From the IMG/VR virus record IMGVR_UViG_3300028835_000398, positions 1-39,245 of that record: 39,245 nt of DNA, one strand, 5' to 3'. The stretch comes from a virus. The notes under the pieces were generated by a model. It saw only the letters and a program-made list of their open reading frames with translations, was not told the DNA's origin and did no database searches. Position numbers and translations under genes: made by a program. Shown here in pieces: positions 1-39,245 of the stretch; within the stretch, counting starts at the first letter, position 1; every line of letters begins with the position of its first letter.

Positions 1-144
1 TACCCTACTTTGTGAATACCTCAGGCACTACTACCGTAGCCAACCTTCTGGATGCACGAAGGATACAGTCCGACAACAAAGTTCCTGCTGCGATGAGGTA
101 TGCGGTGATGTCACCGCTCACCACAGCAGCGTTACTAGGTCTGG
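1..144. repeat. Terminal direct repeat, copy 1 (identical to 39102..39245); the contig closes into a 39,101-bp circle
   Basis: Bases 1-144 (TACCCTACTTTGTGAATACC...GTTACTAGGTCTGG) recur base for base at 39102-39245. The capsid reading frame stays continuous across the join. Confidence 0.95.
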
Positions 145-749
145 ACGCTTTCCGTGCTCTGGATAAGACAGGCACGACAAGGGGACTTCGGGAAGCCTCA
201 TTGGGCAGGATATTCCAGTATGACTTCTACGAGAACCAGAACATCAAGACCCACGCTATCGGCACAGGCTCAAGTCATATGGGAGCAGAGGTTGATGGCG
301 AGCACGCTGCAGGTGTAACCAGCGTCCTTATTGATGAGTTGACTGATGGATACATTTATTCAAAAGGCACGTTACTAACCATTACTGGCGAAGGGCAGCA
401 CGTTGTTGTCTCTCACGCCACAATTACTAGCAACGAAGCCTTATTCGTTCTCTATCCAGCCTTGAGGTCTACGGTTTCCGATGGTGACACGATTTCTATT
501 AACACAAGTGCCACGACCAGCAAGGACAACCTGATGTTCCACAAGAACGCATTTTCTCTGGTAACAGCACCGATTGAACCGCCTATGGGTGGAGCTAAGG
601 GTGAAACGGTCAGCTATAAGGGCATATCGCTGAACGTAGTTTATAGCTACGACCACGATAAGTTCCTGAATAAAATGACCATTTCCCTGCTCTGCGGTTT
701 CAAGACACTTACCCCCGAGCTTGCAGTAAGACTTCACGATGAAAGTTAA
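1..749 (+). CDS. Major capsid protein, P22/Sf6 coat-like, C-terminal part (gene starts at 38729 and wraps through the junction; 373 aa in total)
   Basis: Same frame as track ORF 12..749 and open from base 1. It continues 38729..39245 in frame through the 144-bp overlap. It lies directly after a scaffold-like gene. The C-terminus ...KMTISLLCGFKTLTPELAVRL resembles Sf6/P22 coat family ends. Confidence 0.85.
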   Translation, partial: PYFVNTSGTTTVANLLDARRIQSDNKVPAAMRYAVMSPLTTAALLGLDAFRALDKTGTTRGLREASLGRIFQYDFYENQNIKTHAIGTGSSHMGAEVDGEHAAGVTSVLIDELTDGYIYSKGTLLTITGEGQHVVVSHATITSNEALFVLYPALRSTVSDGDTISINTSATTSKDNLMFHKNAFSLVTAPIEPPMGGAKGETVSYKGISLNVVYSYDHDKFLNKMTISLLCGFKTLTPELAVRLHDES

Positions 750-14412: not shown

Positions 14413-15236
14413 TTCGGTAACTCCTGTATCAATTCTCTTTTTAATAAGGGTTTGAGATTGTCCTTCTCAAATATAGCTATCCCCGCTTTTTTAGCTGAAG
14501 TTTCTATCTCCTCTACCCACTCTATCTTAGGTGGCTTGTATGGCTTGGTCTGAGCGCCATCTATAATCCAGCCAATACCAGCATCCTGTAGGTCTATTGG
14601 TGCTATTTGTATTCGTCCTAAATGTGGCTCTATGGAGAGGTATTTGACGCTTGCTTGTATCTGTTTAAGCCAGTAAAGGGCTTCATACCGCATTTTATCA
14701 GTAGTTATGGTGACACCGACATAACAATGCGGGGGGAACGGACTCCACTTGATTAGGTTCTGCGGTTGCTTGGTGAGGAGATAGAAGCGGTCAAATGGTC
14801 TACACCTTATAGCATCAAAAACATTTCTAGTCCATTCTTCGGGGATACCAATGCCGAACAAATCTGACATATCGCAGACAAATATCCCTCGGTGTGTTGC
14901 TACCTTGCGGTCTTTATTAGTAGTGAACTCCAAGACTCTATCTCCCCAGAAGCGGGGATAGAAGGGGTCAGCCAATCGTTCTTGTAATTCTTTAGGGTTA
15001 TGAGCACATTTAAGAACATCAGTATTACCAGCGATATAAGGATTAGCCAAATACCTAGACTTCAACCGCCCGCGTGCCAGCTTCCTCGCATAGCAGTATT
15101 CACAGCCGTTTAGACAACCAGTGATAGGATTATATGTCCAACCCAAATCATAGCTACTAGCTAATCTAGGGTTTAACTTAGGTGATTTCATTACGGGATT
15201 TCTTACCCACCCTGTTGCCGAACTTGCTCTATTCAT
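14409..15236 (-). CDS. Phage Gp37/Gp68 (DUF5131) family protein with a CX3CX2C cluster
   Basis: 275 aa. NPITGCLNGCEYCYARKLA matches the family's N-terminal three-Cys signature. Confidence 0.7.
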   Translation of the reverse strand: MNRASSATGWVRNPVMKSPKLNPRLASSYDLGWTYNPITGCLNGCEYCYARKLARGRLKSRYLANPYIAGNTDVLKCAHNPKELQERLADPFYPRFWGDRVLEFTTNKDRKVATHRGIFVCDMSDLFGIGIPEEWTRNVFDAIRCRPFDRFYLLTKQPQNLIKWSPFPPHCYVGVTITTDKMRYEALYWLKQIQASVKYLSIEPHLGRIQIAPIDLQDAGIGWIIDGAQTKPYKPPKIEWVEEIETSAKKAGIAIFEKDNLKPLLKRELIQELPK

Positions 15237-15475
15237 TTCAACTCCTCAACTGCTGGCTCGGAAGCTACATTTAGTGCTGGGTTGTGAACTGTTATATTTC
15301 CAGTCATACCAACTTGAATTAAAGGTGAAACTATTATTCGTATTCTGTTTGGAGCTTCTATATGGTGAAGGGTTAAAACTAGACGTGCCCCATCAATAAG
15401 CTGGACATCATCTATCACCCACCCTACGAGTTGCCTCAAGTCCTCTGGCTTATTGAATACCATTTTTTCTGCCAT
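15233..15475 (-). CDS. Hypothetical protein
   Basis: 80 aa, translationally coupled to both neighbours through overlapping start and stop codons. Confidence 0.55.
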   Translation of the reverse strand: MAEKMVFNKPEDLRQLVGWVIDDVQLIDGARLVLTLHHIEAPNRIRIIVSPLIQVGMTGNITVHNPALNVASEPAVEELK

Positions 15476-16296
15476 CAGAGTCTCCTATAGCTATCGCCAT
15501 CAATCTTGATAACCTTACCTTTAACCATTTCATATAACCTATCCCACGATGCTTCATCCCGCCCCCTAGTGCCGAAGTAATCCTGTAGCTCCTCTGGTGC
15601 TAAGTTAGCTGTGATAACAATAGGCACATCACGGTCATATCTGCCGTTGATAACCTTAAATAGTGTTCGCTGGACAAACTTGGGGTCTGTTCGCCTCTCC
15701 TTGCCAACATCATCAAGAATAAGCAGGTCTTTATAAATAAGCTCTTTTAAGATGTCGTCCTCATTGGGCAATAGCTGGCGTTCTTCATAGTTGTAGTTAT
15801 AGCTAGCCTGTATTCTCTGGTAAAGGTCAGGCTCGCTAATCCAGAGTATTCTAGGTATGACAAGCTCTGGGTCGTTCCACCTATCAAGTATCCTGTGGGC
15901 TATTGAGCAGGAAAGGTGTGTCTTGCCGACACCCCAAGAACTTTCCGAGTATATAAGCAAAGACCTGTAACCCTTTACATTTCTGCCTATAGGATATTCC
16001 TCAGCATAATTCCAGCACTCACGATAAGCCCTGTCTATTTCCTTGCCTCTACCTCTATCCCAAGAGCCTGTGCTAAAGTCTTTATTCATAAAGCGAGGCG
16101 GTATTCCCATACTAGCCCTTGCATCACGCCGTCTGGACAATACCTCAGTAGCTTTCTTAGCTACTTCCAGAGCCTCTAACTCCGCTAGTTTTTTCTGTGA
16201 ACAATCAGGGCAGCGTCCTTGCCCCCTCAAAGCTCGTATGCCTAGCACTTCCCAAAACTGAGGCTCAAATTCACCACTACAATCTATACATTTCAC
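15475..16296 (-). CDS. DnaC/IstB-like AAA+ helicase loader with an N-terminal zinc ribbon
   Basis: Walker A is WGVGKTHL and Walker B is LLILDDVG. The N-terminus has CIDC...CPDC. Confidence 0.8.
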   Translation of the reverse strand: MKCIDCSGEFEPQFWEVLGIRALRGQGRCPDCSQKKLAELEALEVAKKATEVLSRRRDARASMGIPPRFMNKDFSTGSWDRGRGKEIDRAYRECWNYAEEYPIGRNVKGYRSLLIYSESSWGVGKTHLSCSIAHRILDRWNDPELVIPRILWISEPDLYQRIQASYNYNYEERQLLPNEDDILKELIYKDLLILDDVGKERRTDPKFVQRTLFKVINGRYDRDVPIVITANLAPEELQDYFGTRGRDEASWDRLYEMVKGKVIKIDGDSYRRL

Positions 16297-18061: not shown

Positions 18062-19150
18062 CTATAGTAACTTCTGCTCCCTAGCAGACTCAGGCTCAAG
18101 CCCCTTCTTGAGCTTCTCCATTATGTCCTCAAACTGCCACACTTTGAGGTCGCCTATCTTTGTGATGCCCCACTTCATATCCTTGTTACAGTAAGCCCCG
18201 AACTCTGGCATACCAAAGCCCTCTACTTTCCCCATCGCCAAAGCTAGCTCCGATGCTTGCTCCTCAGTTATGGGGTTCTCGTTTTTGGTCGCTGGCTCTG
18301 CTTCGGGTTCTGGCTCAGGCTCTTTGGCTTCCTGCACCTCCTTAAACTCTGCCTCAATAGGCTCTTTAGCCTCTTCCTGTTTTTCTATATTACCCCATAA
18401 TTCCTCTATATCCTTTTCAACTTCTGCCTCATAGACAGCCTCCAAGTCAGGCACATCTATCATTAAGGTCTTAGCTTGTTCTCTGGCTACATCAGCTAGT
18501 TGTGCCAGCGTTACATTAGTTCGTAGATTTAATACGAAGACAGTTTGTTTCTTGCCATCTTCGGGATTAGCAACTGTCACTGGCTCAAGAGTGAGTTTAA
18601 GAGGGATTAAAGATATTCTACCAAATGCTTTCTTAATTATCTTAGCACAGGAATTGATATTTAGAATGGAATTTTTTGAGCCTGTATCTATCTGCCAAAC
18701 TCCAAGTCCTGCCACTTCGGGTAAAAGAAATCGCAGGTTCATAACTTCGTGGCACTTCTTTGCCTTGTAATCAGGACAACTCTTACCCTCACAGTTAAAA
18801 TCCTTTAGGCTGACTGTTTTAGTATCCTTAGTAGGCAATTTTTCTGTCTTAATATCAACCATCCTTAAGGCATTTTCACCATCACCTTTGCATATAAGAC
18901 CGTGAGTCTGGTCGTATGCTCTGTAGTATTGAGAAGCCCATAATTCATCATCTTCTAGTGGTATTAAGATGCGAAGCTCCTTTGGCTTCTCCCCAAATAC
19001 CCTTATCAGTTCCTTATAATCAGAGTGGTCTTTGGGAAACACGAAGTAATCCGTTTTCATCGGATAACCCTTTTCGGGATGCTTGATGCCAAGATGTATT
19101 TTGCCAAGTCTAGGGAGTCTAACCGAGTCGCTTAAATCTTTGATAGGCAT
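18062..19150 (-). CDS. Early protein with a Cys cluster and an acidic Glu/Pro linker (DNA-binding or recombination-associated suspected)
   Basis: 362 aa. Contains LPRLGKIHLG, CKGDG...CEGKSCPDYKAKKC and EPEPEPEAEP. Strong AAGGAGAGG RBS. Confidence 0.6.
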   Translation of the reverse strand: MPIKDLSDSVRLPRLGKIHLGIKHPEKGYPMKTDYFVFPKDHSDYKELIRVFGEKPKELRILIPLEDDELWASQYYRAYDQTHGLICKGDGENALRMVDIKTEKLPTKDTKTVSLKDFNCEGKSCPDYKAKKCHEVMNLRFLLPEVAGLGVWQIDTGSKNSILNINSCAKIIKKAFGRISLIPLKLTLEPVTVANPEDGKKQTVFVLNLRTNVTLAQLADVAREQAKTLMIDVPDLEAVYEAEVEKDIEELWGNIEKQEEAKEPIEAEFKEVQEAKEPEPEPEAEPATKNENPITEEQASELALAMGKVEGFGMPEFGAYCNKDMKWGITKIGDLKVWQFEDIMEKLKKGLEPESAREQKLL

Positions 19151-27674: not shown

Positions 27675-27851
27675 ATGCACGGTAGAAAGCTCTGGGACTG
27701 TGAACTGTGCCCGAAGCCCATCTGTGTCGGTGAGCCTTATCGCTATTGGCGGGTCAAGATTGACGATACCCTTCGGCTGGTGAGGGTTCACCCTGAGTGT
27801 AAATTAAAAGCGGAGCGTGAGAGTGGTATTAGACCAGATAGAAACGATTGA
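27675..27851 (+). CDS. 58-aa zinc-ribbon-like protein (below the ORF-track cutoff)
   Basis: My translation is MHGRKLWDCELCPKPICVGEPYRYWRVKIDDTLRLVRVHPECKLKAERESGIRPDRND. The RBS is weak. It overlaps the 5' end of the terminase ORF. Confidence 0.4.
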   Translation: MHGRKLWDCELCPKPICVGEPYRYWRVKIDDTLRLVRVHPECKLKAERESGIRPDRND

Positions 27852-29283
27852 CATAACCACAGTAGAGGGAGCGAGGTTCGTTACCGAGCAGGGTAAAAAA
27901 TACCCCGACCTCTGGATAGAGAACTATCTGGGCTGCAATATGTGGTCTACCCCTAAGTTAATAGCCCGCTCCACATTCGCTCATCCCAGAACGGCGGTTG
28001 CGTCTGCATCGGCTACCTCAAAATCCCACACGGCAGCCCGCATCGCCTGTGCCTTCCTTTATCTTTTCAGCCCGTCAACGGTTATCACCACCGCCCCTAC
28101 CTTCCGTCAGGTTGAGTCAATCCTGTGGCGTGAAATCAGGGCAGCGTGGGCGGGGTCTAGGGTAAATCTGGGTGGCGACCTCAAGGCGACTGGCATCCAT
28201 ATCAGGGAGGATTGGTTCGCCATCGGTCTTTCTACCGATGAGCCTGAGCGGTTTCAGGGCTTGCATAATGAGAACGTGCTGGTGATTGGCGATGAGGCTA
28301 GCGGTCTCACGCCTAATGTCTACACCGCTATTGAAAATCCCCTGAGTTCGGGTAATGCCCACCTGCTGCTCATCGGAAACCCCACGCAACCTGTCGGCAA
28401 TTTCAGGGATTGCTTCACCGACCCGCAGACCTCAAAGCTCTACAAGACCTTCTATATCTCCTGCTTTGATACGCCCAACTTTACGCAGTTCGGGATTGAT
28501 ATGGACGACATTCGCTCTGGCGAGTGGCGGGATAAAATAGGCGATGCCGACCTTCCCAGACCATACCTCATCACTCCGCAATGGGTCTGGGAACGCTATC
28601 AGGAGTGGGGGGAGAATAATATCCTGTTCCAAGTCTACTGTCTGGGTCGCTTTCCTGACGCTGGCGTTAATACCCTCATCCCCTATCATACTATAGGCTA
28701 CGCAATGGAGACCGTTGAGAAGAAGGCTGAGGGATTGAAGGTCTGTGCCCTTGATGTTTCCAGATATGGCGATGATGAGACTGTTTTAGGCATCAGGCAG
28801 GGCGACAGGATATTCCCGTTGGAACGCTGGGGGCATCAGGATACCACCAACACGGCGGGGCGGGTCGCCAGACTCTTGAGAAAGCACGACCCCGTAGGAT
28901 GCTGGATTGACGCTGTGGGTGTTGGTGCTGGCGTTTATGACAATTTGAAAGCCAACGGCTATCCTGTCTATGAGTTCAACTCGTCTGAGGCTGCTCTGGA
29001 CAAGGAGATATTTGGCAATATCAGGGCTGAGCTATACTTCGCTCTGGGGGATAAGCTGGAAGCGGAGTCGCTGGATTTGCCGAAGGACAATCTCCTCAAA
29101 GGGCAACTCGGCGATATTAGATACCGATACAATACCAAGAACCAGCTTATGATTGAGTCTAAAGAGGAAGCAAGGTCAAGGGGGGTTCGCTCACCAGACA
29201 GGGGCGATACCTTAATGATGCTGATGAAGCCAATAGCAGCGATGATTAACAGTAAGCCTTTCGTAAGAAATACTATGGGCTAA
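27817..29283 (+). CDS. terL: Terminase large subunit
   Basis: 488 aa. Degenerate Walker A region (ASASATSKSHTAA) and Walker B VLVIGDEASG. The C-terminal nuclease-sized half contains VCALDVSRYGDDETV. It lies immediately upstream of the portal gene. Confidence 0.85.
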   Translation: MRVVLDQIETIDITTVEGARFVTEQGKKYPDLWIENYLGCNMWSTPKLIARSTFAHPRTAVASASATSKSHTAARIACAFLYLFSPSTVITTAPTFRQVESILWREIRAAWAGSRVNLGGDLKATGIHIREDWFAIGLSTDEPERFQGLHNENVLVIGDEASGLTPNVYTAIENPLSSGNAHLLLIGNPTQPVGNFRDCFTDPQTSKLYKTFYISCFDTPNFTQFGIDMDDIRSGEWRDKIGDADLPRPYLITPQWVWERYQEWGENNILFQVYCLGRFPDAGVNTLIPYHTIGYAMETVEKKAEGLKVCALDVSRYGDDETVLGIRQGDRIFPLERWGHQDTTNTAGRVARLLRKHDPVGCWIDAVGVGAGVYDNLKANGYPVYEFNSSEAALDKEIFGNIRAELYFALGDKLEAESLDLPKDNLLKGQLGDIRYRYNTKNQLMIESKEEARSRGVRSPDRGDTLMMLMKPIAAMINSKPFVRNTMG

Positions 29284-29294
29284 GGGGGTAACAA

Positions 29295-31064
29295 ATGCCA
29301 ATAGAAATAGCTGAAATAGAGCGGAAGTCAAGCGACTTCAAATCCTTGTTTGACCGACAGGACAAAGATATGGACTTGTATTTCGGCAAGAAATACGAGA
29401 TGCTTGGCTTTGATGACCGACCCATTCCCAAGATAGTGAATTTGACCCTGAACGACCCCGCCGTGTTTGCAGCACGAAGCATAGCTATACTGCAAAGTGC
29501 TGCTCCGCAGACCGTGATTGAGTTGCTGACTCCCGATGATAAGTTCACCCACCACGTTGAGGAGTTTAGCGAGGACTTATACCTCACGGCTGATGAGAAC
29601 TTGGGCTTGCGTGATTTACACGGCATATATCCCTTTGAGGTTGAGCAAAGCTGCATCAGGGGTCGTCTGGCTGCCCAATGCCTAATCAGGTGGGATAAGA
29701 AGCTAGGTAAGGTGGTGATTGATATTCGCCCTATTGACACCCGTTACTTTATCTATGCGATGGGCTATGACGGTATGAAGTGGGGAGCTTACGCTACCAT
29801 CCAGAGCAATGACTACCTGAAAGAAAAATACGGCGAAAAAGGAGACATCGGGGATGAACTCAACAAGGTCTGCTGGGACATTTACGATAGGCAGCGACAT
29901 TACTTTTATATAGGAGAGGGCACGGATGCCCTTCTGGTAGAGAACACCGTGCATCCCTTCAACGGTATAGTGCCGATAATCCACCAGAAAGTTCCCGCAG
30001 GCTCTATGCTGGCACACCCAGACGCTATCCCCCACGATGGTGAGAGCATCTTTGCACTTAACCGAGACCTTTACCCCGAACTGAACCGAATGGCTACCGT
30101 GCTCCACAACCTGACGATGGCTAGCTTCTTTGGGGCTAGGCAGTATGCCAGTGAAGCAGGTGAGCAAAAGAGAACTGAGGCTATTCCTTTCGGTCTGGGC
30201 GTGGTGGTATCGGTTGAGAAGGGCGGTGGCTACACACTGATACCAGTAAACGACATCAGGAACGCCACCAGACTTGAGTATTCAATGCTTGAGAGCCGTC
30301 AGCAGCGTGGCTCTCTGCCTAATATAGACTACGGCAACCTGACCTTCCCGCTCTCAGCCGTTGCCATTGGCAGGCTGACGGAGAGCAAAGACCAGATATT
30401 CGTGCCCCGACTTCAAGCTCTGGCTATGTTCTACCAGAAGCTAACCCGAATGGCTATTAAGCAGATAATAGCCATTGGCAAGCCAGTTGAGCTAGGGGAG
30501 GAAGGACGCAGGCGAACCTATAACCCATCTGACTTGAAGGGTGAATACGTTGTCAAGCACAAATACTTCACCACCAGCAAGGAGCAGAAGCTAGCCAATA
30601 TCACCGAAGCTCAGTCGCTAGGGGGCATTGTCTCAGATGATTACAAGAGGCGTGAAATCCTGATGCTGGCAGACCCAGACGGTGAAGTTGATAAAATCAG
30701 GGACGAGACCGCAGAGAAGATTGACCCTGCCATAGCTCTATACAGGCGTGCTCACAGTCTGGCAGACAAAGAAAAATATGTTGAAGCGGAACTGACACTG
30801 AGGACGCTTGAGATAATGCTGAGGCAGAGAATGATGCAGAAGGCTCTCAGCCTGCCAGAGCAGCCGAAGCAACTAGCGCAGGGCGAGGAGCAACCGAAGT
30901 CCCCGATGCCTTTGATAGAAGGTGGCGGTGGCGGTGGCGAAAGGCGGGAGAAAGGTGAGGAGGAGCGGATGGTGGAGGAGTCTGAGGAGGAGGAGAGAAT
31001 AGCACGGCTGGCTGAAACGGCTAGGCGTGGCAGACCGACACCAGCTTTAACAGGGGGTGAATGA
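29295..31064 (+). CDS. Portal protein
   Basis: 589 aa, located directly after the terminase gene. The C-terminus is Glu/Gly/Arg-rich (GGGGGERREKGEEERMVEESEEEE). The call rests on size and synteny. Confidence 0.75.
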   Translation: MPIEIAEIERKSSDFKSLFDRQDKDMDLYFGKKYEMLGFDDRPIPKIVNLTLNDPAVFAARSIAILQSAAPQTVIELLTPDDKFTHHVEEFSEDLYLTADENLGLRDLHGIYPFEVEQSCIRGRLAAQCLIRWDKKLGKVVIDIRPIDTRYFIYAMGYDGMKWGAYATIQSNDYLKEKYGEKGDIGDELNKVCWDIYDRQRHYFYIGEGTDALLVENTVHPFNGIVPIIHQKVPAGSMLAHPDAIPHDGESIFALNRDLYPELNRMATVLHNLTMASFFGARQYASEAGEQKRTEAIPFGLGVVVSVEKGGGYTLIPVNDIRNATRLEYSMLESRQQRGSLPNIDYGNLTFPLSAVAIGRLTESKDQIFVPRLQALAMFYQKLTRMAIKQIIAIGKPVELGEEGRRRTYNPSDLKGEYVVKHKYFTTSKEQKLANITEAQSLGGIVSDDYKRREILMLADPDGEVDKIRDETAEKIDPAIALYRRAHSLADKEKYVEAELTLRTLEIMLRQRMMQKALSLPEQPKQLAQGEEQPKSPMPLIEGGGGGGERREKGEEERMVEESEEEERIARLAETARRGRPTPALTGGE

Positions 31065-31279
31065 TGGCAAAGAGTTTAGCTGATTGCAAAAACCCAGAGG
31101 AAGCCCACAAGGTAATTGATGAGCGTGTCAAGGCTGCTTTGCAGCAACCGACAGGTGAGAAAATAGAGCGATTTCGGCAGATGATAGCTACCAGAGGTGG
31201 TCAAGTAGGGCAACCGTTCCCACCTGAAAGACCGCAGCAACCCAGAACGCAACTGCCGTCAGTGAGGGCTAACCTATGA
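31061..31279 (+). CDS. Small hypothetical protein, translationally coupled between the portal and giant ORFs
   Basis: 72 aa, with ATGA overlaps at both ends. Confidence 0.55.
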   Translation: MMAKSLADCKNPEEAHKVIDERVKAALQQPTGEKIERFRQMIATRGGQVGQPFPPERPQQPRTQLPSVRANL

Positions 31280-34200
31280 CTACCCAAAAATTACTTGAGC
31301 CGAAAGAACCACCCACATTAGAGGAACTTAGGCATAAGATGTTTGAGTTAGCTCGCAAGACTGGTATAAAGCCACTTAAAGCTGGTGAACAGATGTTCTT
31401 TAGCCCTAAGCAAGCTAAGGATTTGGGTGTGGAAATTGAAGAAGGCTGGCTGTTAAAGCTGATTGGTGCTGAGGGTGAAGCCCCGCCAGCAATCAGCTAT
31501 ATCTCTCCTGAGAAGTGGGAAGTAATAGGTGAGGATACATTTTTATCTCCAGAAGGAGAGCAATATACCAGAGACCAACTCACCCAGCTTTACGAGGAGC
31601 AACAAGCTCAGATAATGGCAGCACCGCCTGAAGCACTAGCCCCAGAGATAATCCCCCCGCCACCACCAGCACCACCGATTGAGCTACCTACAACTATCGT
31701 CAGACCAGAGATTGATAATGCCCTCAGACGGGTATACCCTGAATTGTTTGAGCCGACAAAGACAGTCGGCTTCACGGCAGAAGAAGTGCCGATGATGGTT
31801 CTTGAGCAGATATTCACAAGGGCTGAGAGTGAGCCAGAGACATTACTTGAGGAGATATATCAGAAAGGCAGGAGTCCCGACACGGAAGCCCTGCTACGCA
31901 TTTTCAATCCCGATATGACCTCTCAGGAAATGTTTACATTCTTCGCCCCACCTGACCCATACGCACCCGTCAGGTCTAGTATCCTGAACATATTCCCTGA
32001 TGGCAAGGTAGAGGACATTATGAAGTGGGCTGAGGAGAACCCTGACGCTTTCTTTGCCCAGATTAGAGACATTGGCATAAACAAGGATACGGTGAGCTTA
32101 CTGGAAACAGTTACCGATATGACTGAGATTGATATGGCTAAGTTCTTTGCCGAACCAACCAGACCTATGAGCAATGCTTTCCTGTCTGGTGTCCAGACCG
32201 TGTTTCAATATGTTGACGGCTGGTGGAAAACAGGTCTTATGGAGCTAGGTTTCAAGTATTATGACCTGATGGAGTGGGCTAGCTTCAATGACGACCATTG
32301 GCGAAGTCAGGCTGAGGTTATTCTAAATGACGCTTTCAAAAAACACGGCTGGAAGGCTATCTTTAGCTCTGATGTCAACGAGGCTTGGGACGTATATTTC
32401 AAAGAGCGTTTAGGTGAAGGTGCTCTTACTACCGCAATGGAGATAATTGCCGTGTTCACCAATCCTCTATATATCCTTCCTGCTGGCAAGGTATCAATGG
32501 TTGTAGCTAAACCGTTTCGTGGTATACCAGTATTGGGCGAGACTATGCAGGGCGTAGCAAAAGGAGTCCAGTTAAGCGAAAGGGCATTAGCCGAAGCTAC
32601 CCTGCTGCCGACTGTTGGGCGTGGTATAAAGTGGACTGTTGGCAAAATAGCTCCCAAAGCGGAGAGATACTTGATAGCCACATTACCCGAAAGGGAGTTA
32701 CTGAGGGAATGGCTATTTAAGAATGATTACTTTAGGAAAGTGGCGGAGAAAATTCCGCTTTTAGGTAAGATTGCACCAGCAGCAAAAGTCTCTGGTCGCC
32801 TGCCAGAAGTATTAGCAACCAAAGCTGAAGCTGGTGCTGCCGTCATTCAGGAGACGGCGATGAGAAATGCTATCCTTGAGGTAGGGCAGAGCACCAAAGG
32901 TCAGGCTCTAGCCTATATCCGTGAGCTTGGCTCAACAAGAGAAATCTTTGGAGTTAGGGAAGGGCTGGTCAGTTCACGTCTGGTCAAGCCTAGACAAGTT
33001 GAATACAGCCTTGCTCTGGGCGATGTGCTCCAAGCCCCTGAGCGTTATACTTTTGCTCATAAAAACGGCTTTGAATATGCCAAGCGAACCCAGAAGCTAA
33101 TGCAGGAAATGTTTGAGCTTGCCAAGAAGGAAGGTGTGGACATCAAAAAGACTGCCCTTGAGCCATTTGAGGAGTTTGTCCACTGGGTTGTTACTGGTGT
33201 CAAAAACAAAGAAGGCGTGGTTATATCAACCAGAATGGGGCGTGGTAGTGTTGTCGGTGCTCTGCCAGCTTCAATGAAGCACCGCCGATTTGAGCGGATG
33301 CTGGACGGTCTAAATCAGGGCTTCATTTATGCTGACGATGTGGAGGTCTACGTTGGAACTTATACTGACGATATGTTCAAGGCGATTGCCGACCGCCGCT
33401 ACGGTGAGGGGATAAAAGAAATCATCGGCAGGTTAGGCAAGGAACTCGGTGCTCTGCCTGTTACGCCGAAAGACAGATTGTGGGCTGTGTATCCCGAACA
33501 GGCTAAACGGTGGTGGCTCAGGCAGCCTACCGCCAGAATAGGTGAAGTGCCCACAGTCCGTGAAGCCTTGCAGGACTTGGTTTACTCAATGAATACAGTC
33601 AAGCAACTGGCAAGAGGGCAGCAGATAGCAGGAGCTACACTCAGGGCGATTGAAAACAGGACACCTGCCATAGCCGAAAGAATTAGAACCGTCAGTGTAT
33701 TCAAAGGTGATAGAGCAACTAAGGCTAAGCTGGAAGCGTTGATATGGAAGCGGATGCAGGCTGGCAAACCAATCCCTGTTACCTTGCCGAATGTCAGAAA
33801 GGGAGTAGCATTTGGAAAAGACATAGCCCCCACCATAGAAAGTGAGATAGCATCGTTGAAGAGGTTTGTGGCTGACAGGGCTGCTGAAGGAGCAGGTTTT
33901 GAGGAGTTGTATGGTATTGGTCTCAGGATACGAAGCCTGCAAGCGAAGCGAGGTTTCCTGTCCGTTGAGGATTATGTTTCTAGTTTGGGCAAGGACGATG
34001 TTACCAAGTTCTATCAGAAGTTTACCAAGTTGGAGCGTGCTGACGCTCTGGCTGCCGAACTCAGGGGTGAGTTTGATAGGATGCTACCCGACTACCTTAG
34101 TGCCCGTTTTGAGTATCAGCGTGCTATGGAGATAGTCAAGCGACCCCTAGCAAAAGAGGGTGAGGGCTATATCAGGACGGCGAGGGGTTATCCGCATCCG

Positions 34201-37200
34201 ATGTTCCAGAACCAGATTTACCCTGATTATGTCGCTGACCAAGCGACAAAACTGCTGAATGATGAAGCAAGCAAAGTGCTAGCCTTGAGTGCCAATATAA
34301 GCGGTGCTTTCCGTTTGCAACAAGCAGCTCTTGACATATCTGCTGGCTGCATACAGGTATTTGTAGGTATGTTTACTCATCCTGTAAGATGGACAAAGGC
34401 TCAGGCTTGGGCTTTGGCTGCTTTAGTAGACCCAAAGATATTTGACGCTTATTTAGTGAGGCACGCAAAGTCAATAGCGGAGCGTAACTTCTATCTGGGT
34501 TCTCAGCGACCTTTTGAGTATTTTGAGAAGATGGGTCTGCTACAGAAGTATATGGGCAAGTTGCCTTTCGGTAAGGCAATTCTGGGTCAGACTTACGGCA
34601 GAACTGAGTCTGCCTTCTCTATGATGGCTACTGTTTACAAAGACGAGTCGTGGAGAGCTATGTCGCCAATGTGGATTAAGAGGGCACAGGGTGCGGAACT
34701 AGCCAGATACCTTGACCGCTTGACAGGTATGTTGAGCTTCCGCCAACTTGGTATGCCAGCCAATGCTAGAGCCTTCGCTGCTGGTTGGGTATCATTCGCT
34801 CCTCAATATCGTATGTCTGTGCTCAGCTACTTTGCTGATGCCCTCAAGGGAGGTATGACAGGGACACAGGTAAGAACAGACATAGCCCGACTGGTGGCTG
34901 CTGGGACTGCTATGTATTATGGCTTCTGTAAGGCTACTGGCAATCCTGTGTATCTTAACCCCTACACAGACGGCAAAAAGTTTATGAGCATCAATGTAGA
35001 TGGGCATTGGATTGGCTTGGGTAGTGCCGTAGTCTCGCTAACTAGGGCATCCGTTGATATACTATCTAGTATGGTGGGTATGGGTGATAACGAGCCAATG
35101 GACTTCCTGAAAGCCGACAAGTGGAAGAACCCTATACTCAGGGCTTTGATTGGGCAATCCGCCGTCCTGCCCCAGATGATACTTGAGATAGCAACTCGCA
35201 GGGACTTTCTTGGCTACCCTCTGGGAAATCCGTTTGAGGACGGCGATGCTTGGGCTGAGTGGGGTTTGTGGGTCGGTGAGCAGTTTACTCCTATCTGGCT
35301 ACAGGATATTCTTTATGATAAAAGTGGTGTCGGTTGGAGTCCAATAGCAGCCCTAGCTGAGTTTATCGGTCTCAGGACATCGCCTCAGACCAAGTGGGAA
35401 ACGCTTGATGATAAACTCAAAGAGCGTAGAGCTTGGGAAAAGGTTGACGACCTGACCGATGAGCAGCGGGAACGCATTGAGGTTAAGGATGAGACCGTGC
35501 TAAGCGTGCTCAGCCGTTTCCAGAAAGACCAGATGTTCAACGCCAACCAAGACCTGATTGAGTTCTACGATGATGCTCAGGCGGATGCTCTAATCAGGGG
35601 TTCGGAAATGTATCAGGACTATGTGAGAGGTATAACCATCGCACAAGCCACAATGACCACAGACCTTAATGACGCAATCACCTTCGGCATCTTGAGAGAC
35701 GGCAATGACACACGATGGATGAGGGAGCGATACAATGATATTATGTCCGCCTATGGCTTGACGATGGAACTCCTGAGAGAAAACGAGGATTTAGCCCCTC
35801 TCTTTGAGGAGTGGGACAAGAGTAGGGAGAAGCGAAAGGTTGATGCGGAGACTATAGACCTTGCCTATTGGGAGTTTATTGAGAATGTTCTATCGCCAGA
35901 CCGCAGGCTGGACAACGGCGACTTTGACTTTGAGGAGTATCAGGAAGCCCTAGAGATGTGGCGTGAGAAGTGGGGCGATGAGGTCTATGGCAAGGTGCTC
36001 TATATACTGGAGAACGCCAAGAAAGCCATACCCGATTATCCTGAATGGGCTATCAAGCTCTGGCAGGATAGACGGCAGACTAACGAAACTGGTTACTGGA
36101 ACTTGCCTCCTAAGCCTATTTACCAGATGAACGAAAAGGACTTGGCTGACGGGTTTATCCCTGAGAAGTATATGACGCTCTGGGGGCAATATCAGAGCAT
36201 TAAAACCAAAGAGGAGCGTGAGCGGTTTCAGGAGAAATACCCTGATTTCGCTAAGGATTGGAGAGCGGAGCTAAGGGCTGATAACCCCACGCTGGATGCT
36301 ACGCTTGCTTTCTGGGGATACGGTGGTCAGTTGCAGAGCAAGGAAGCCTACGACTTGGTAAGCCAATGGTCTAAGGAATTAAAGATACCGCTTGAGCAAA
36401 TAGGTCTGGGGATGCCACCCGAACATCTTGTCGTCACATACTTTGAACATCTAACTATGGTGCGTGAGACTAGCGGTAATAGCCCAGAGGTCAGGCTTTT
36501 CAAGCTCAAACGCCCCGAATATCTTGAGTGGGGAGTTCTCAATCGGGGATGGGATAATCTGAAAGGCGAGATTTTTGAGGCTCTTGAGATACAGGTAGAT
36601 TATAAAGACAAGTTTGCTGAATACGCTGCCTTTGGCGATGTTGCCTCAGAGAACTACATTGAGGACGATGCCGAAAGGAAGGCAAAGCGGGAGCGATATA
36701 ATTTATTAAACCCTGATTTCAGGGATGCGGTGAGGAAGTTGGCGGTCTATAAGACAAGCGTTAAGGATTTGGCTGTGATAGAGTCCAATGTGGATTATGG
36801 TAAGCTCACAGACAAGTTTGGAGCGAATAGTGCCGAAGCCCTGCTGTTCCGCTTTGAAAATAATGCTCTGAACACTTGGGGAATGAGCAGGGATTATCAC
36901 GGCGATAATGCTTGGATGCCGTTAGAGCTTAGCAAAGTTCCGATATGGGAGATTAACCGCCAGTATCGTTTAGAGGATGAGGCTTACCAAGCCATTCTGG
37001 ATAAATATACCGATGCCATTGAGCAGCGAAAGGCTACTGAGGCTTATCTTGTTAGCCAACCCGAATACGCCAGAGCCAGACGGGTCAGGGAAGCCTACGA
37101 GTTGGGCTGGACGCAGGAGAGCCTTATCAATAAATTTGTTGAATATAGCGGTCTAACAGAAAAAGGCTTCTGGAAGGAACGCTATCTCAGGGACAATCGG

Positions 37201-37911
37201 GGTCTATATCAAGCCCTCAAAGATGCCGACAAGCTCAAGGTGGACTATGAGTTTGAAAAAATACCTGACGAGCAATACGACATCATCTACGATAAGTGGG
37301 CGGATATGTTCACCGCTTACGATGAAGTCAAAGGCACGGCTGAGGAAATGGCTGAGGCTAGGAGGCGGATGCTCATAGCCTATCCTGAGTTTGCTATAGA
37401 CAGGCTCAGGCGTATAGCTCACGGCAGGCTGATACCGAACCAGCACGTTGAGGCTTATGCTGAATACTACACGCTACTATTTGATGGTAAGCCAGCCTTT
37501 GTTGAAACGTGGTATGACGATGATTGGTTCTTGATGGAGCACAAGGACTTCTACAACACGATGGTCTCTATGGAGCTATGGAAGCCAAAAGACTTTAGCA
37601 AAATCCCGACCAGAGAGGTATTTAAGCTCTGGCAAGTCTATCTCACCTTGCCGAGAGGTAGCCCCCGCATCGGCTACAGGGCTGCTAATAAAGAGCTTGA
37701 TGATTGGCTATTCTTGACAGGCAAGGTAAGCCAGACCATACCTGAGAAAGAACGCCAGAAAGAGATAGGCAAGTGGGGGGTCTGGGCTGAGAAATATAGG
37801 GAATACCTTACCAAGATTGAGGAGGTTGCTGTTAAACGAGAGAAGCAAGCCATTCAGGAAACCGAAAGACTAAAAAAGAGGTTGGAGGAGCTTATGAAGA
37901 AAAAGGAGTAG
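31276..37911 (+). CDS. Giant 2,211-aa virion-module protein (putative internal/ejection or minor-capsid fusion protein)
   Basis: A single uninterrupted ORF covering 17 percent of the genome, in the portal-to-scaffold slot. It has a Pro-rich N-terminal segment, a hydrophobic central region, a C-terminal array of NP(D/E)(F/Y) repeats and a coiled-coil tail. I recognised no catalytic motif. Confidence 0.85.
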   Translation: MTTQKLLEPKEPPTLEELRHKMFELARKTGIKPLKAGEQMFFSPKQAKDLGVEIEEGWLLKLIGAEGEAPPAISYISPEKWEVIGEDTFLSPEGEQYTRDQLTQLYEEQQAQIMAAPPEALAPEIIPPPPPAPPIELPTTIVRPEIDNALRRVYPELFEPTKTVGFTAEEVPMMVLEQIFTRAESEPETLLEEIYQKGRSPDTEALLRIFNPDMTSQEMFTFFAPPDPYAPVRSSILNIFPDGKVEDIMKWAEENPDAFFAQIRDIGINKDTVSLLETVTDMTEIDMAKFFAEPTRPMSNAFLSGVQTVFQYVDGWWKTGLMELGFKYYDLMEWASFNDDHWRSQAEVILNDAFKKHGWKAIFSSDVNEAWDVYFKERLGEGALTTAMEIIAVFTNPLYILPAGKVSMVVAKPFRGIPVLGETMQGVAKGVQLSERALAEATLLPTVGRGIKWTVGKIAPKAERYLIATLPERELLREWLFKNDYFRKVAEKIPLLGKIAPAAKVSGRLPEVLATKAEAGAAVIQETAMRNAILEVGQSTKGQALAYIRELGSTREIFGVREGLVSSRLVKPRQVEYSLALGDVLQAPERYTFAHKNGFEYAKRTQKLMQEMFELAKKEGVDIKKTALEPFEEFVHWVVTGVKNKEGVVISTRMGRGSVVGALPASMKHRRFERMLDGLNQGFIYADDVEVYVGTYTDDMFKAIADRRYGEGIKEIIGRLGKELGALPVTPKDRLWAVYPEQAKRWWLRQPTARIGEVPTVREALQDLVYSMNTVKQLARGQQIAGATLRAIENRTPAIAERIRTVSVFKGDRATKAKLEALIWKRMQAGKPIPVTLPNVRKGVAFGKDIAPTIESEIASLKRFVADRAAEGAGFEELYGIGLRIRSLQAKRGFLSVEDYVSSLGKDDVTKFYQKFTKLERADALAAELRGEFDRMLPDYLSARFEYQRAMEIVKRPLAKEGEGYIRTARGYPHPMFQNQIYPDYVADQATKLLNDEASKVLALSANISGAFRLQQAALDISAGCIQVFVGMFTHPVRWTKAQAWALAALVDPKIFDAYLVRHAKSIAERNFYLGSQRPFEYFEKMGLLQKYMGKLPFGKAILGQTYGRTESAFSMMATVYKDESWRAMSPMWIKRAQGAELARYLDRLTGMLSFRQLGMPANARAFAAGWVSFAPQYRMSVLSYFADALKGGMTGTQVRTDIARLVAAGTAMYYGFCKATGNPVYLNPYTDGKKFMSINVDGHWIGLGSAVVSLTRASVDILSSMVGMGDNEPMDFLKADKWKNPILRALIGQSAVLPQMILEIATRRDFLGYPLGNPFEDGDAWAEWGLWVGEQFTPIWLQDILYDKSGVGWSPIAALAEFIGLRTSPQTKWETLDDKLKERRAWEKVDDLTDEQRERIEVKDETVLSVLSRFQKDQMFNANQDLIEFYDDAQADALIRGSEMYQDYVRGITIAQATMTTDLNDAITFGILRDGNDTRWMRERYNDIMSAYGLTMELLRENEDLAPLFEEWDKSREKRKVDAETIDLAYWEFIENVLSPDRRLDNGDFDFEEYQEALEMWREKWGDEVYGKVLYILENAKKAIPDYPEWAIKLWQDRRQTNETGYWNLPPKPIYQMNEKDLADGFIPEKYMTLWGQYQSIKTKEERERFQEKYPDFAKDWRAELRADNPTLDATLAFWGYGGQLQSKEAYDLVSQWSKELKIPLEQIGLGMPPEHLVVTYFEHLTMVRETSGNSPEVRLFKLKRPEYLEWGVLNRGWDNLKGEIFEALEIQVDYKDKFAEYAAFGDVASENYIEDDAERKAKRERYNLLNPDFRDAVRKLAVYKTSVKDLAVIESNVDYGKLTDKFGANSAEALLFRFENNALNTWGMSRDYHGDNAWMPLELSKVPIWEINRQYRLEDEAYQAILDKYTDAIEQRKATEAYLVSQPEYARARRVREAYELGWTQESLINKFVEYSGLTEKGFWKERYLRDNRGLYQALKDADKLKVDYEFEKIPDEQYDIIYDKWADMFTAYDEVKGTAEEMAEARRRMLIAYPEFAIDRLRRIAHGRLIPNQHVEAYAEYYTLLFDGKPAFVETWYDDDWFLMEHKDFYNTMVSMELWKPKDFSKIPTREVFKLWQVYLTLPRGSPRIGYRAANKELDDWLFLTGKVSQTIPEKERQKEIGKWGVWAEKYREYLTKIEEVAVKREKQAIQETERLKKRLEELMKKKE

Positions 37912-37964
37912 CTATTTACTATCAGGCTTGACAAAAATAAAAAGTAAGGAGATAATTAAATCAA

Positions 37965-38711
37965 ATGCAGGACGAAAGTGGGAAACATCAGGACAATTCT
38001 TCAGAGGAGTTAGGGTCTGGACAACCTTCTGGTAGTAAGCCTGCGACTACTTCTGAACCAAAGGGGCAAAAGAAAATCACCATTACCGAAGCAGACCGAC
38101 AGAAGATAATCTCGGATGCGAAGGCAGGGGAAGGTCGCAAGTGGAAGGCAGTTGAAGTGGAACGAGACCAACTCAAAACTGAGGTTGGTAATCTGACCAA
38201 TAGGCTGTCGGAAATTGAGCAGAACCTTACAGCCAGAGCTTATGAGGAGGCGAGAACCGACCCTACTTCTCTCCAACAATTCAACAAGGAACAGGCGTTT
38301 AAGGAGCGGGAGCGAAAGGTGCAGGAACGGGAGACTAATCAAACCAGAGGAGAGGCACAGCTTAAAGCAGACAAGGAAGCGTTTGAGGCTGATACAGGCT
38401 CAACCATAGTATCTGTCATTGCTGCCAAGCACGGTCTTGAGGTCTCTGACTTAGAGGACTTGGGCATTAAGGACAGGGAAGCCCTTGACAAAGTTGCTGC
38501 CCGAATTAAGGCTGGAAAGCCTGCTGTCGCACCTACTGAGACTGACGAAGAAAAGGCTACTAGAGAAGCCAAAGAGAGAGAAGAAGGCGAATTTACGCCA
38601 GCAAGTGAACTGTCCTCTGCTGCTAAAGCGGTAGGCGAGCTTACTGTTGAGGAGACTGAAAAGTCCACAATGGAAGCTCTTGAAGCAAAGGTTGCCCCGC
38701 CTATTAAATAA
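37965..38711 (+). CDS. Scaffolding protein
   Basis: 248 aa, highly charged, with helical or coiled-coil composition. It lies immediately upstream of the coat gene. Confidence 0.7.
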   Translation: MQDESGKHQDNSSEELGSGQPSGSKPATTSEPKGQKKITITEADRQKIISDAKAGEGRKWKAVEVERDQLKTEVGNLTNRLSEIEQNLTARAYEEARTDPTSLQQFNKEQAFKERERKVQERETNQTRGEAQLKADKEAFEADTGSTIVSVIAAKHGLEVSDLEDLGIKDREALDKVAARIKAGKPAVAPTETDEEKATREAKEREEGEFTPASELSSAAKAVGELTVEETEKSTMEALEAKVAPPIK

Positions 38712-38728: not shown

Positions 38729-39245
38729 TTGGCGACTTATATTACCCCACAAGTAGTAGCCAAACTCGGTATCATTGCCCTCTTGAATAATTGGGTATTC
38801 GCTGGACTCGTCCATCGTGATTACTCAAAAGAGTTCAAGAAAGTGGGCGATACCGTAATCATAAAGAAGCCTAACACGTTCACCGCTATAGAGTTTGACG
38901 GAGACCTGTCAGGGCAATGGCAAGAACCAGCAGAGGAAAGCACTACTGTCGTAATGGATAAGCTCCTAACCGTGCCTATCCAGATTACACAGACCGACCT
39001 CACGCTGAAAATCAGCCAGTTCTATGAGCGTATCATAGAACCAGCCCTGCAAGCTCTGGCTCAGGAAGTGGACTCACGGTTGGCTGGTCTTTATGTGGAT
39101 ATACCCTACTTTGTGAATACCTCAGGCACTACTACCGTAGCCAACCTTCTGGATGCACGAAGGATACAGTCCGACAACAAAGTTCCTGCTGCGATGAGGT
39201 ATGCGGTGATGTCACCGCTCACCACAGCAGCGTTACTAGGTCTGG
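38729..39245 (+). CDS. Major capsid protein, P22/Sf6 coat-like, N-terminal part (continues at base 145 of the circle and ends at 749)
   Basis: TTG start at 38729, 8 nt after AAGGAGG, with an in-frame TAA at 38705. My translation begins LATYITPQVVAKLGIIALLNNWVFAGLVHRDYSKEFKKVGDTVIIKKPNTF..., which resembles the Sf6 gp5 N-terminus. The frame is open to the window end, so it is absent from the ORF track. Confidence 0.85.
   Translation, partial: MATYITPQVVAKLGIIALLNNWVFAGLVHRDYSKEFKKVGDTVIIKKPNTFTAIEFDGDLSGQWQEPAEESTTVVMDKLLTVPIQITQTDLTLKISQFYERIIEPALQALAQEVDSRLAGLYVDIPYFVNTSGTTTVANLLDARRIQSDNKVPAAMRYAVMSPLTTAALLGL
39102..39245. repeat. Terminal direct repeat, copy 2 (identical to 1..144)
   Basis: Exact 144-bp match to the window start. 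Confidence 0.95.

Follow-up and report, generated by a model that had tools for sequence, protein, structure and literature searches.

The window analysed here is the whole 39,245-nucleotide stretch of viral DNA, and its head gene region is dominated by a single giant gene. The first 144 bases of the window are identical to its last 144 and fall inside the coat gene; this exact 144-bp direct repeat at the window ends indicates a circular assembly, in which 39,101 bases are unique. The earlier note had described a 2,211-aa ORF taking up about 17 percent of the genome. We re-found this ORF on the plus strand (Table 1), and it accounts for 16.97% (~17.0%) of the 39,101-bp circular genome. Full-length homologues (P0002-P0004) share 56-63% identity with the giant protein, and 20 further relatives were found. 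These homologues, together with the wide recruitment of proteins by its central core described below, demonstrate that the giant ORF is a real gene.

The giant gene is translationally coupled to the genes in front of it. Its ATG at 31276 overlaps the TGA stop (31277-31279) of a 72-aa ORF as ATGA, and the ATG of the 72-aa ORF at 31061 overlaps the TGA stop (31062-31064) of the portal candidate in the same way. A GAGG-type Shine-Dalgarno-like sequence lies upstream of both the 72-aa ORF start and the giant ORF start. The coupling to the portal gene through the 72-aa ORF, as the earlier note had claimed, is thus present at both overlaps, the portal itself being a candidate.

Table 1. Features of the giant gene and its surroundings in the window.
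Feature	Position	Strand	Description
Large terminase candidate, 488 aa	27817..29283	+	phrog_5902 (function unknown) E 8e-27, and motif reading
Portal candidate, 589 aa	29295..31064	+	Called by position and size only
72-aa basic ORF, pI 9.9	31061..31279	+	ATGA-coupled at both ends
Giant ORF	31276..37911	+	ATG start, 2,211 aa, 253.9 kDa, pI 5.4
Small N-terminal beta-rich domain, aa 30-115	31363..31620	+	AF2 pLDDT ~85, strands E39-98
N-terminal helical domain, aa 140-295	31693..32160	+	AF2 pLDDT 83-90; HMM matches 59/174 relatives
Core module M1, aa 340-806	32293..33693	+	HMM matches 151/174 relatives
Variable junction (insertion hot spot), aa 807-960	33694..34155	+	M1-M2 spacing among relatives
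Core module M2, aa 961-1369	34156..35382	+	HMM matches 163/174 relatives
Helical module Mid3, aa 1370-1609	35383..36102	+	AF2 all helix, pLDDT ~65-88; HMM matches 111/174 relatives
C-terminal helical repeat region, aa 1610-2170	36103..37785	+	AF2 all helix, pLDDT 80-92; HMM matches 67/174 relatives
Charged coiled-coil-like tail, aa 2171-2211, and stop	37786..37911	+	Sequence reading; outside the structure models
Sigma-70-like promoter site	37928..37956	+	TTGACA-17-GATAAT, 11/12 positions
Scaffold-like protein, 248 aa, pI 5.0	37965..38711	+	Position and E/K/A/Q-rich composition
Coat gene, N-terminal part	38729..39245	+	Runs on across the circular junction; 373-aa ORF when circularised
Coat gene, C-terminal part	12..749	+	PF11651 P22_CoatProtein E 4e-22, phrog_283 E 4e-43

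The genes on either side of the giant gene could be named with different degrees of confidence. The 373-aa product spanning the window junction is confirmed by its family matches as the coat protein, and P22_CoatProtein was recorded for the window's coat gene in L001. The 488-aa product is a terminase candidate from motif reading: it contains a deviant Walker A ('ASASATSKS'), a Walker B ('VLVIGDEAS') and the nuclease-type stretches 'ALDVSRYGDDET', 'WIDAVGVGAGV' and 'SPDRGD'. Weak PDB matches (E 0.29-0.67) to two large terminases, 8dkr and 5c10, lend slight further support. The 589-aa product gave no significant match in Pfam, PHROGs, NCBIfam, the PDB (queried by the sequence alone and by a profile of 4 sequences) or tblastn against isolate phages, the best trace being phrog_64, portal, at E 0.26 in a PHROGs search at E <= 1; it is a portal candidate by position and size. 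The 248-aa scaffold-like product had no family match in Pfam, PHROGs or NCBIfam. Of the terminase-portal-scaffold-coat order read in the earlier note, the coat stands and the terminase is backed by motifs, but the portal and the scaffold are without a significant family match.

Two products of the genome have N-terminal domains matching tail-fibre PHROGs, suggesting a short-tailed phage, and no tail tube, tail chaperone or sheath gene was recognised in the genome. It had also been claimed that separate ejection-protein genes and a tape measure are missing. None was recognised, but such an absence is not assertable, as most ORFs downstream of the coat gene are unannotated.

The 53-nt gap between the giant gene and the scaffold-like gene holds the best sigma-70-like site of the region, although such sites are no more numerous in the region as a whole than expected by chance. 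TTGAC(A/G) boxes followed after 17 nt by a -10-like box also occur directly 3' of the giant gene in three related contexts (L003, L006 and L011), and the gap after the giant gene holds promoter-like boxes or terminator-like hairpins in L003, L005, L006 and L011. The coupling on one side and the gap signals on the other fit a low-copy unit of the giant gene with the portal, set apart from a high-copy unit of scaffold and coat.

The giant protein of the window (the query) is modular. Two AF2 models, covering aa 1-920 and aa 960-2159, were almost wholly helical; exceptions were the small beta domain at the N terminus and short strands within M1. Their pTM values were low (0.37 and 0.42), so the relative placement of the modules is not confidently predicted. 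The beta-rich domain, whose HMM matches 48/174 relatives, is followed by a proline-rich linker (aa 116-139, AF2 pLDDT below 50; 16 prolines in aa 101-200) and the N-terminal helical domain. The two domains make up an N-terminal region conserved among the giant relatives, with BLAST matches to P0012-P0016 and P0019-P0021. M1 contains a confident alpha/beta subdomain at aa 520-720, with pLDDT 88-96 at aa 540-620. Conserved Gly, Pro and Arg residues abound in M2, which was modelled with low confidence (pLDDT ~45-60); two of its helices, aa 1008-1032 and aa 1203-1221, are conserved and mildly hydrophobic. The query lacks a strong transmembrane helix: its highest-scoring 19-residue Kyte-Doolittle window reaches 1.43. 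The length between M1 and M2 is 150 aa in the query and ranges from 0 to 1,208 aa among 150 relatives, which marks the junction as an insertion hot spot.

The all-helical C-terminal region is ~800 aa overall, and its aa 1610-2170 part carries degenerate repeats of the type ...ER..YL..NP(E/D)(F/Y)...RR...AY..G.P..LI..YV.YY.LP..G...ERYL. These repeats were seen only through offset BLAST matches to relatives and self diagonal scoring; self-BLAST of the giant protein did not detect internal repeats. The repeat region closes with the conserved motif DFSK(V/I)PTREV..L...Y..LP.G..R...R...P.LD.WL.

Searches with the query gave no significant match in Pfam, PHROGs or NCBIfam (none in Pfam even at E <= 1) and no match to PDB sequences. 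The earlier note had reported no Walker, methyltransferase, polymerase, lysozyme or protease motifs, and our family scans and regular expressions likewise found none. It had also proposed AlphaFold and Foldseek analysis. When both AF2 models were compared by Foldseek with the PDB, and the first of them (aa 1-920) also with BFVD, nothing fell below E 0.06 and no enzyme fold was recognised; the best BFVD rows, non-significant, were named 'Large polyvalent protein associated domain-containing protein'. Clear homology of the whole protein to a known non-structural enzyme, one of the two results that the earlier note had said would overturn its reading, was not found in Pfam, PHROGs, NCBIfam, the PDB or Foldseek.

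These searches bear on the idea that the giant protein is a late non-virion protein, for example an unrecognised enzyme, a factor for replication or transcription, or a protein for anti-defence or superinfection exclusion that acts in the producing cell. The confidently folded subdomain of M1, with its conserved residues R670 and Y685, would suit such a role. So would one relative, P0193, whose gene is carried by a small element integrated in a bacterial contig; the element also encodes a tyrosine integrase, MerR, an AAA_25 protein and a serine recombinase, and capsid genes are absent from the vicinity. However, neither a catalytic motif nor an enzyme fold appeared in any of the searches (Pfam, PHROGs, NCBIfam, PDB sequences, Foldseek), the conserved positions are predominantly Gly, Pro and Arg, only one Asp being invariant (D1020, in M2), and the query gene is embedded and translationally coupled within a head module. 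We regard a non-virion role as distinctly improbable.

The query is not an orphan. From 1.84 billion proteins, at least 9,347 cluster representatives (50% identity) were recruited with its central core (aa 340-1400), which places the giant protein in a very large phage protein family that has no name yet. The earlier note had suggested examining how homologues are distributed in metagenomic phages. Among isolates, tblastn against 50,697 phage genomes found no homologue of the query, P0021 or P0101. Member proteins of the core family span ~500-3,300 aa, and core-only relatives measure ~1,200-1,400 aa, close to T7 gp16 in length.

Relatives with the same N- and C-terminal modules as the query carry different middles. 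A ParB-like DGxHR motif is present in P0005, P0018 and P0021, and an HExxH motif in P0010 and P0029; in P0005, P0010 and P0029 the motif sits at the M1-M2 junction. LPD38 was found in P0013 (E 1.8e-48), whose aa 786-1678 match Pelagibacter phage Lederberg_8 (gp16 slot) and Bacillus phage Page_20. Residues 1233-1745 of P0014 match BPP-1 Bbp10, Pseudomonas phage AF gp16 and Cobetia phage Carin1 gp32, and residues 235-555 of P0018 match Klebsiella LASTA gp01, annotated as DarB-like. Bbp10, AF gp16, LASTA gp01 and the pelagiphage protein are giants occupying the internal-virion-protein (IVP) slot of isolated podophages. A PDB sequence search revealed no known domain in P0053, P0062 and P0048, which have inserts of 870-1,200 aa. 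The sharing of domains with these relatives may point, by guilt of association, to a packaged role for the query.

One relative weakly matches phrog_2206, 'virion RNA polymerase' (E 2.7e-5). This match and the size of the protein raise the question of a virion-packaged RNA polymerase of the N4 gp50 or crAss-like type, and the N4 protein also has non-polymerase regions in common with polyvalent proteins. However, DxDGD is absent from 26/26 relatives checked, there is no RNA polymerase match in Pfam and no Foldseek match to polymerases, and the sigma-70-like promoters of the late region point to the host polymerase. Because both the motifs and a matching fold are absent, we reject this reading, which we hold to be extremely improbable.

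The position of the gene is conserved. In 6 of the 9 contexts examined (the window, L003, L005, L006, L011 and L013), a family member is flanked by a portal-sized gene on one side and by the scaffold and coat genes on the other, the shared order being terminase, portal-sized gene, small ORF(s), family member, scaffold-sized gene and capsid. The coat families vary across these contexts (P22_CoatProtein, GP7/Bbp16 and Phage_capsid_4). An ORF of 72-87 aa lies between the portal and the giant gene also in L003, L006, L011 and L013, and these small ORFs have no detectable sequence similarity to one another. The 469-aa and 669-aa ORFs found upstream in L013 and L011 were considered as separate counterparts of a fused N-terminal extension, and homology tests of this were negative.

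The slot argues against a tail component encoded out of place, such as a tape measure-, central fibre- or hub-like protein. Two M2-bearing relatives, P0022 and P0025, close a structural or tail-fibre block away from the portal; M2 is Gly/Pro-rich, mildly hydrophobic and poorly predicted, as is often the case in tape measures; and BFVD gave marginal matches to tape measure proteins (E ~1-2). These matches are not significant, however, and in the six contexts above the gene occupies the slot from the portal-sized to the scaffold-sized gene, upstream of the capsid gene. A tape measure gene is placed between the tail chaperone and the distal tail genes of a long-tailed phage, whereas the query gene belongs to the head module of a genome in which tail tube, chaperone and sheath genes went unrecognised and tail-fibre domains suggest a short tail. 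A tail component is in our judgement a poor candidate.

The portal candidate of the window has homologues of 553-570 aa upstream of the giant gene in L003, L005 and L006 (E 1e-38 to 1e-79). The giants of L005 and L006 have only the N- and C-terminal modules in common with the query, so that these modules travel with this portal family. This co-inheritance, the conserved slot, and the coupled position directly 3' of the portal candidate and 5' of the scaffold would also be expected of a non-ejected head-assembly factor: a minor head protein associated with the portal and functioning like SPP1 gp7 or Mu F, an internal core or an accessory scaffold. Such a factor would arrange the portal vertex or the packaged DNA, and would either stay in the capsid or be removed at maturation. 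We consider this unlikely, though less so than the tail and non-virion readings. The Phage_Mu_F domain is missing, as detailed below, and 254 kDa is very large for an assembly factor. Moreover, the domains of the relatives that work on DNA or protein within the host cell (ParB-like, HExxH, LPD38) and their IVP-D-like segments make sense only if delivered.

Taken together, these data suggest that the giant protein is probably a low-copy pilot or cargo protein inside the capsid, built in at the portal vertex and ejected at infection. The protein would be produced together with the portal and would enter the procapsid at or near the portal vertex; at infection it would leave through the portal and the tail channel, and as a long chain made up mostly of helices it would assist passage of the DNA through the cell envelope. 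In M2, the two conserved helices of mild hydrophobicity are candidates for contact with the membrane. An alternative or additional role may be the escort and protection of the incoming DNA. The N-terminal (~300 aa) and C-terminal (~550 aa) modules would form a packaging and ejection chassis, and the middle would be exchangeable: here it is the widespread M1-M2 core, and in relatives ParB-like, LPD38, HExxH or IVP-D-like segments appear to replace or extend this core. The earlier note had proposed an internal virion or ejectosome protein, possibly with effector domains. This class fits best, but the modules of the query show no detectable homology to gp15/gp16, Bbp10, the pelagiphage protein or MuF. 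The settings of P0193, P0022 and P0025 and the lack of a strong transmembrane helix also speak against it.

If this is true, a large group of uncultured ~40 kb phages devotes about one sixth of the genome to one packaged protein, and a giant internal protein can be encoded away from the tail genes, which matters for rule-based annotation of podophages. The M1-M2 family is invisible to Pfam, PHROGs and NCBIfam. Naming it would annotate thousands of giant virome genes now called 'hypothetical', and would flag the place next to the portal as a conserved slot for proteins that are ejected or carried as cargo. The M1-M2 junction, varying by up to 1,200 aa, would be a natural place for new injected anti-defence or host-takeover domains.

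The role proposed for the query is that of T7 gp14, gp15 and gp16, which the virion keeps inside the capsid at the portal and ejects so that they span the envelope, and both the T7 core proteins and the query are extensively helical. The T7 core, however, is made from three separate genes placed after the tail tube genes, whereas the query is one gene in the slot between portal candidate and scaffold, and T7 gp16 is annotated with an endolysin domain that the query lacks. The earlier note had likened the length of the query to that of the T7 core proteins combined. The sum is correct (196 + 747 + 1,318 = 2,261 aa), but the match is coincidental, because the family members span such a wide range of lengths. 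IVP-C and IVP-D candidates are extensively alpha-helical and very hard to detect by sequence (Hardies et al., PMC4819975). The query shares the helical character with them, but not the sequence homology or the location after tail tube genes: hhalign of profiles A2, A3 and A4 against T7 gp15, gp16, Bbp10, the IVP-D-region profile A6 and Lederberg_8 never exceeded a probability of 4%, a negative result that is weak because IVP-C/D proteins diverge beyond detection.

BPP-1 Bbp10 (2,052 aa in a 42.5-kb genome), listed as an IVP-D (T7 gp16) homologue by Hardies et al. (PMC4819975, Table 2), and Pseudomonas phage AF gp16 (2,213 aa, 42.7 kb) are of comparable size, so that the size of the query alone is not unusual. 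Like the query, Bbp10, AF gp16 and Carin1 gp32, from epsilon15/BPP-1-like podophages, are encoded in the structural cassette of genomes of ~40 kb, and a segment of these Bbp10-type proteins is homologous to the middles of P0012, P0014 and P0020, which share the N- and C-terminal modules of the query. The Bbp10-type genes, however, follow the tail genes and adjoin a transglycosylase-bearing internal protein, whereas the query gene lies beside the portal candidate.

Phage-type polyvalent proteins are very large, multidomain, tied to portal-terminase packaging and predicted to be injected (Iyer et al. 2017); examples are P1 DarB, the DarB-like gp01 of Klebsiella phage LASTA and N4 gp50. Their hallmarks (the DdrB-type ParB motif, LPD38 and HExxH) occur in relatives of the query, singly in some. 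The query gene likewise lies among virion genes of a portal-terminase phage, from the terminase and portal candidates to scaffold and coat. A polyvalent protein has at least two catalogued domains per polypeptide (MPTase, DdrB-ParB, methylase-helicase, ArdC-N, LPD1-40 and others), whereas the query itself has none; its conserved modules are missing from Pfam, which includes at least the LPD38 and ArdcN models.

The gene for MuF or SPP1 gp7 lies immediately 3' of the portal gene, just as the query gene follows its portal candidate. MuF-type proteins are regarded as packaged, associated with the portal and carriers of fused effector domains. The query is about five to seven times larger, and the Phage_Mu_F domain (PF04233) is absent from it, from its 21 closest relatives and from 8 core-type relatives. 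Finally, beside the T7 IVP set and P22 gp7/gp20/gp16, the M1-M2 family might conceivably stand as a third, independent solution for DNA delivery in short-tailed phages, with a portal-side gene, a portal-specific N- and C-terminal chassis and an effector slot at the junction, a possibility that we put forward only tentatively.

The giant ORF runs uninterrupted on the + strand from an ATG start (31276-37911) and encodes a protein of 2,211 aa with a computed mass of 253.9 kDa and pI of 5.4. Both ATGA couplings proposed in the earlier note were read in the sequence: the stop codon of the 589-aa ORF, our portal candidate (TGA, 31062-31064), overlaps the ATG of the 72-aa ORF (31061), which itself ends in a TGA (31277-31279) that shares bases with the giant ORF's start codon. 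The window ends carry an exact direct repeat of 144 bp (1-144 and 39102-39245), and the record is therefore a circular assembly whose unique sequence amounts to 39,101 bases. The giant gene takes up 16.97% of these, in agreement with the share of about 17% estimated before. The phage has a bacterial host: a DnaC/IstB-type helicase loader is among its genes, and sigma-70-like promoter sites occur in its late region.

No match to the giant protein was obtained with Pfam (E ≤ 1), PHROGs (below E 0.05) or NCBIfam, and neither the PDB sequences nor the genomes of 50,697 isolate phages yielded one. A large protein collection contained full-length homologues with 56-63% identity and about 20 more distant relatives of 1,450-2,537 aa, all metagenomic. 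When 1.84 billion proteins were searched exhaustively with a profile of the central part (aa 340-1400), the number of cluster representatives recovered was 9,347 at E ≤ 1e-3, 6,717 at E ≤ 1e-10 and 1,434 at E ≤ 1e-30, the matched proteins spanning about 500 to 3,300 aa. Eight relatives found in this way were without any Pfam domain, and one profile-found relative, P0101, had no isolate homologue. The giant gene is thus real, conserved and unnamed.

BLAST maps and sub-HMMs, together with a pair of AlphaFold2 models (mean pLDDT 67.8 and 73.1; pTM 0.37 and 0.42), gave the layout of the protein (see the table). Foldseek returned no significant match in the PDB for either model, or in BFVD for the first. 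Core module M2 was poorly predicted; its conserved positions are mainly Gly, Pro and Arg, with a single invariant Asp (D1020), and it contains two conserved, mildly hydrophobic helices (aa 1008-1032 and 1203-1221). That the protein is a virion RNA polymerase seems to us extremely improbable. Among 174 relatives, 89 consist of the core only (M1-M2 with or without the helical module Mid3, about 1,100-1,500 aa) and 33 show the complete giant architecture (median length 2,235 aa). Across 150 relatives, the length of the M1-M2 junction runs from 0 to 1,208 aa; in the query it is 150 aa. The earlier note had likened the length of the giant protein to that of T7 gp14-16 combined; the sum is indeed close (2,261 aa), but because lengths in the family are widely spread the match is a coincidence.

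Positions of features in the window, in the giant protein (aa) and in contigs carrying relatives (L-numbers)
Feature	Position	Strand	Remark
Fibre/spike-like product, 289 aa	1284-2153	+	tail-fibre PHROGs
Fibre/spike-like product, 814 aa	3525-5969	+	tail-fibre PHROGs
521-aa product	6926-8491	+	60-aa segment matches 'head decoration' PHROG, E 2e-14
353-aa product	8854-9915	+	GLUG motif, PF07581 at E 1e-14
Early/replication-arm products	18062-19150, 15475-16296, 14409-15236	-	
Small beta-rich domain	aa 30-115		
Proline-rich linker	aa 116-139		
Helical domain	aa 140-295		
Core module M1	aa 340-806		confident alpha/beta subdomain aa 520-720
Variable junction	aa 807-960		
Core module M2	aa 961-1369		
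Confidently predicted helices, ~800 aa	aa 1370-2170		last 550 aa are degenerate repeats
Charged tail	aa 2171-2211		
Sigma-70-like box after giant gene	L003 ~15655-15685		
Sigma-70-like box after giant gene	L006 ~15610-15640		
Sigma-70-like box after giant gene	L011 ~11950-11980		

Relatives that share the N- and C-terminal modules differ in their middles. A ParB-type DGxHR motif occurs in P0005, P0018 and P0021, in P0005 exactly at the M1-M2 junction; HExxH lies within the junction inserts of P0010 and P0029, and P0013 carries LPD38 (E 1.8e-48). Iyer et al. assign the hub of the polyvalent-protein domain network to a zincin-like peptidase. For three relatives, the middle has homologues among the proteins of isolated podophages. 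Residues 786-1678 of P0013 match a protein of 1,254 aa that occupies the gp16 slot in the T7-like Pelagibacter phage Lederberg, as well as Bacillus phage Page_20; residues 1233-1745 of P0014 match Bbp10 of BPP-1 (2,052 aa), gp16 of Pseudomonas phage AF (2,213 aa) and gp32 of Cobetia phage Carin1; and residues 235-555 of P0018 match the DarB-like gp01 of Klebsiella phage LASTA (> 4,000 aa). Bbp10 is listed as the IVP-D (T7 gp16) homologue of BPP-1 (Hardies et al., PMC4819975). For the query's own modules, comparisons with T7 gp15 and gp16, with Bbp10, with a profile of the IVP-D region, with the pelagiphage protein and with MuF all came out without a signal.

The coat gene (373 aa), which crosses the window junction, is clearly of the P22 type (PF11651 at E 4e-22, phrog_283 at 4e-43). 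The remaining neighbours are identified with less certainty. The 248-aa product encoded between the giant and coat genes is acidic and rich in E, K, A and Q; it had no family match, and by position and composition it looks like a scaffold. The 488-aa terminase candidate (27817-29283) has ATPase and nuclease motifs of the terminase type, read by eye, and weak PDB matches to large terminases. The 589-aa product had no significant match in any library searched, and its identity as the portal rests on size and position. In the two fibre/spike-like products, tail-fibre PHROGs match an N-terminal segment (about 70-100 aa) that both possess; they look like distinct fibres or spikes that attach through one shared domain, as is the case in short-tailed phages. 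The stretch that holds the 521-aa and 353-aa products is unannotated and could conceal separate internal or tail proteins. Three HNH endonuclease genes lie in the 39-kb genome (766-1206, +; 17333-17908, -; 24443-24973, -); one, wedged right behind the coat gene, matches phrog_5046 at E 3.5e-23, and the other two match Pfam HNH_3 and HNH. Products of the early/replication arm include a Gp3-like protein (PF18897, E 1e-48), a DUF5131 protein and the AAA+ loader. The ten products scanned included neither a DNA polymerase nor an integrase, and no tRNA genes were found.

Of nine gene contexts examined, six have the same order, namely a terminase-sized gene, a portal-sized gene, at least one small ORF, the family member, a scaffold-sized gene and a capsid gene. 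They are the window (together with L001 and L002), L003, L005, L006, L011 and L013. Coat families differ among these contexts (P22_CoatProtein, GP7/Bbp16, Phage_capsid_4). Homology links the portal candidates found in the window, L003, L005 and L006 (E 1e-38 to 1e-79); it does not extend to all of the terminases of these contigs, and the window terminase candidate had no BLAST similarity to the others. As the portals are homologous and the L005 and L006 giants have only the N and C modules in common with the query, these modules travel with the portal family, and it seems that portal and giant gene are passed on together among mosaic head modules. The region's best sigma-70-like site (TTGACA-17-GATAAT, 37928-37956) lies between the giant stop codon and the scaffold-like gene, and four relatives have comparable boxes or terminator-like hairpins in the same gap; the L011 box is a perfect TTGACA-17-TATAAT preceded by TG, and L005 and L006 have the hairpins ahead of the scaffold-sized gene. 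This suggests a transcription-unit boundary in the gap, so that the portal gene, the small ORF and the giant gene appear to form a unit of their own, apart from the high-copy scaffold and coat.

The reading with the best support is that the giant product is probably a low-copy, capsid-internal protein. It would be made alongside the portal, incorporated into the procapsid and expelled on infection, with the N and C modules as a packaging/ejection chassis around an exchangeable middle; from packaging onward, we infer every step. A head-assembly protein that is not ejected is an unlikely alternative.

The conserved gene order has exceptions. Two M2-bearing relatives stand at the end of a structural/tail-fibre block; that the giant is a tail component encoded out of place strikes us as improbable. 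P0193, a 1,346-aa core-type relative (L014 10001-14041; JGI 3300037673, a 209-kb contig), is encoded by a small element integrated into a bacterial contig. Also on the element are a tyrosine integrase, a serine recombinase, MerR and an AAA_25 protein, and there are no capsid genes nearby; the element could be a decayed prophage, or the family could be used outside phages. We give similarly little credence to a non-virion protein made late in infection. On the short contig of P0013 (L004), neither side shows a portal or capsid gene.

BPP-1 and Pseudomonas phage AF likewise encode one giant structural-cassette protein that takes up a similar fraction of a similar-sized genome, so giant size alone is unremarkable. 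The capsid-internal protein proposed here differs from these known cases in having no detectable similarity to known IVP, MuF or polyvalent-protein domains, in the position of its gene adjoining the portal gene, in belonging to a large unnamed family, and in its conserved insertion slot.
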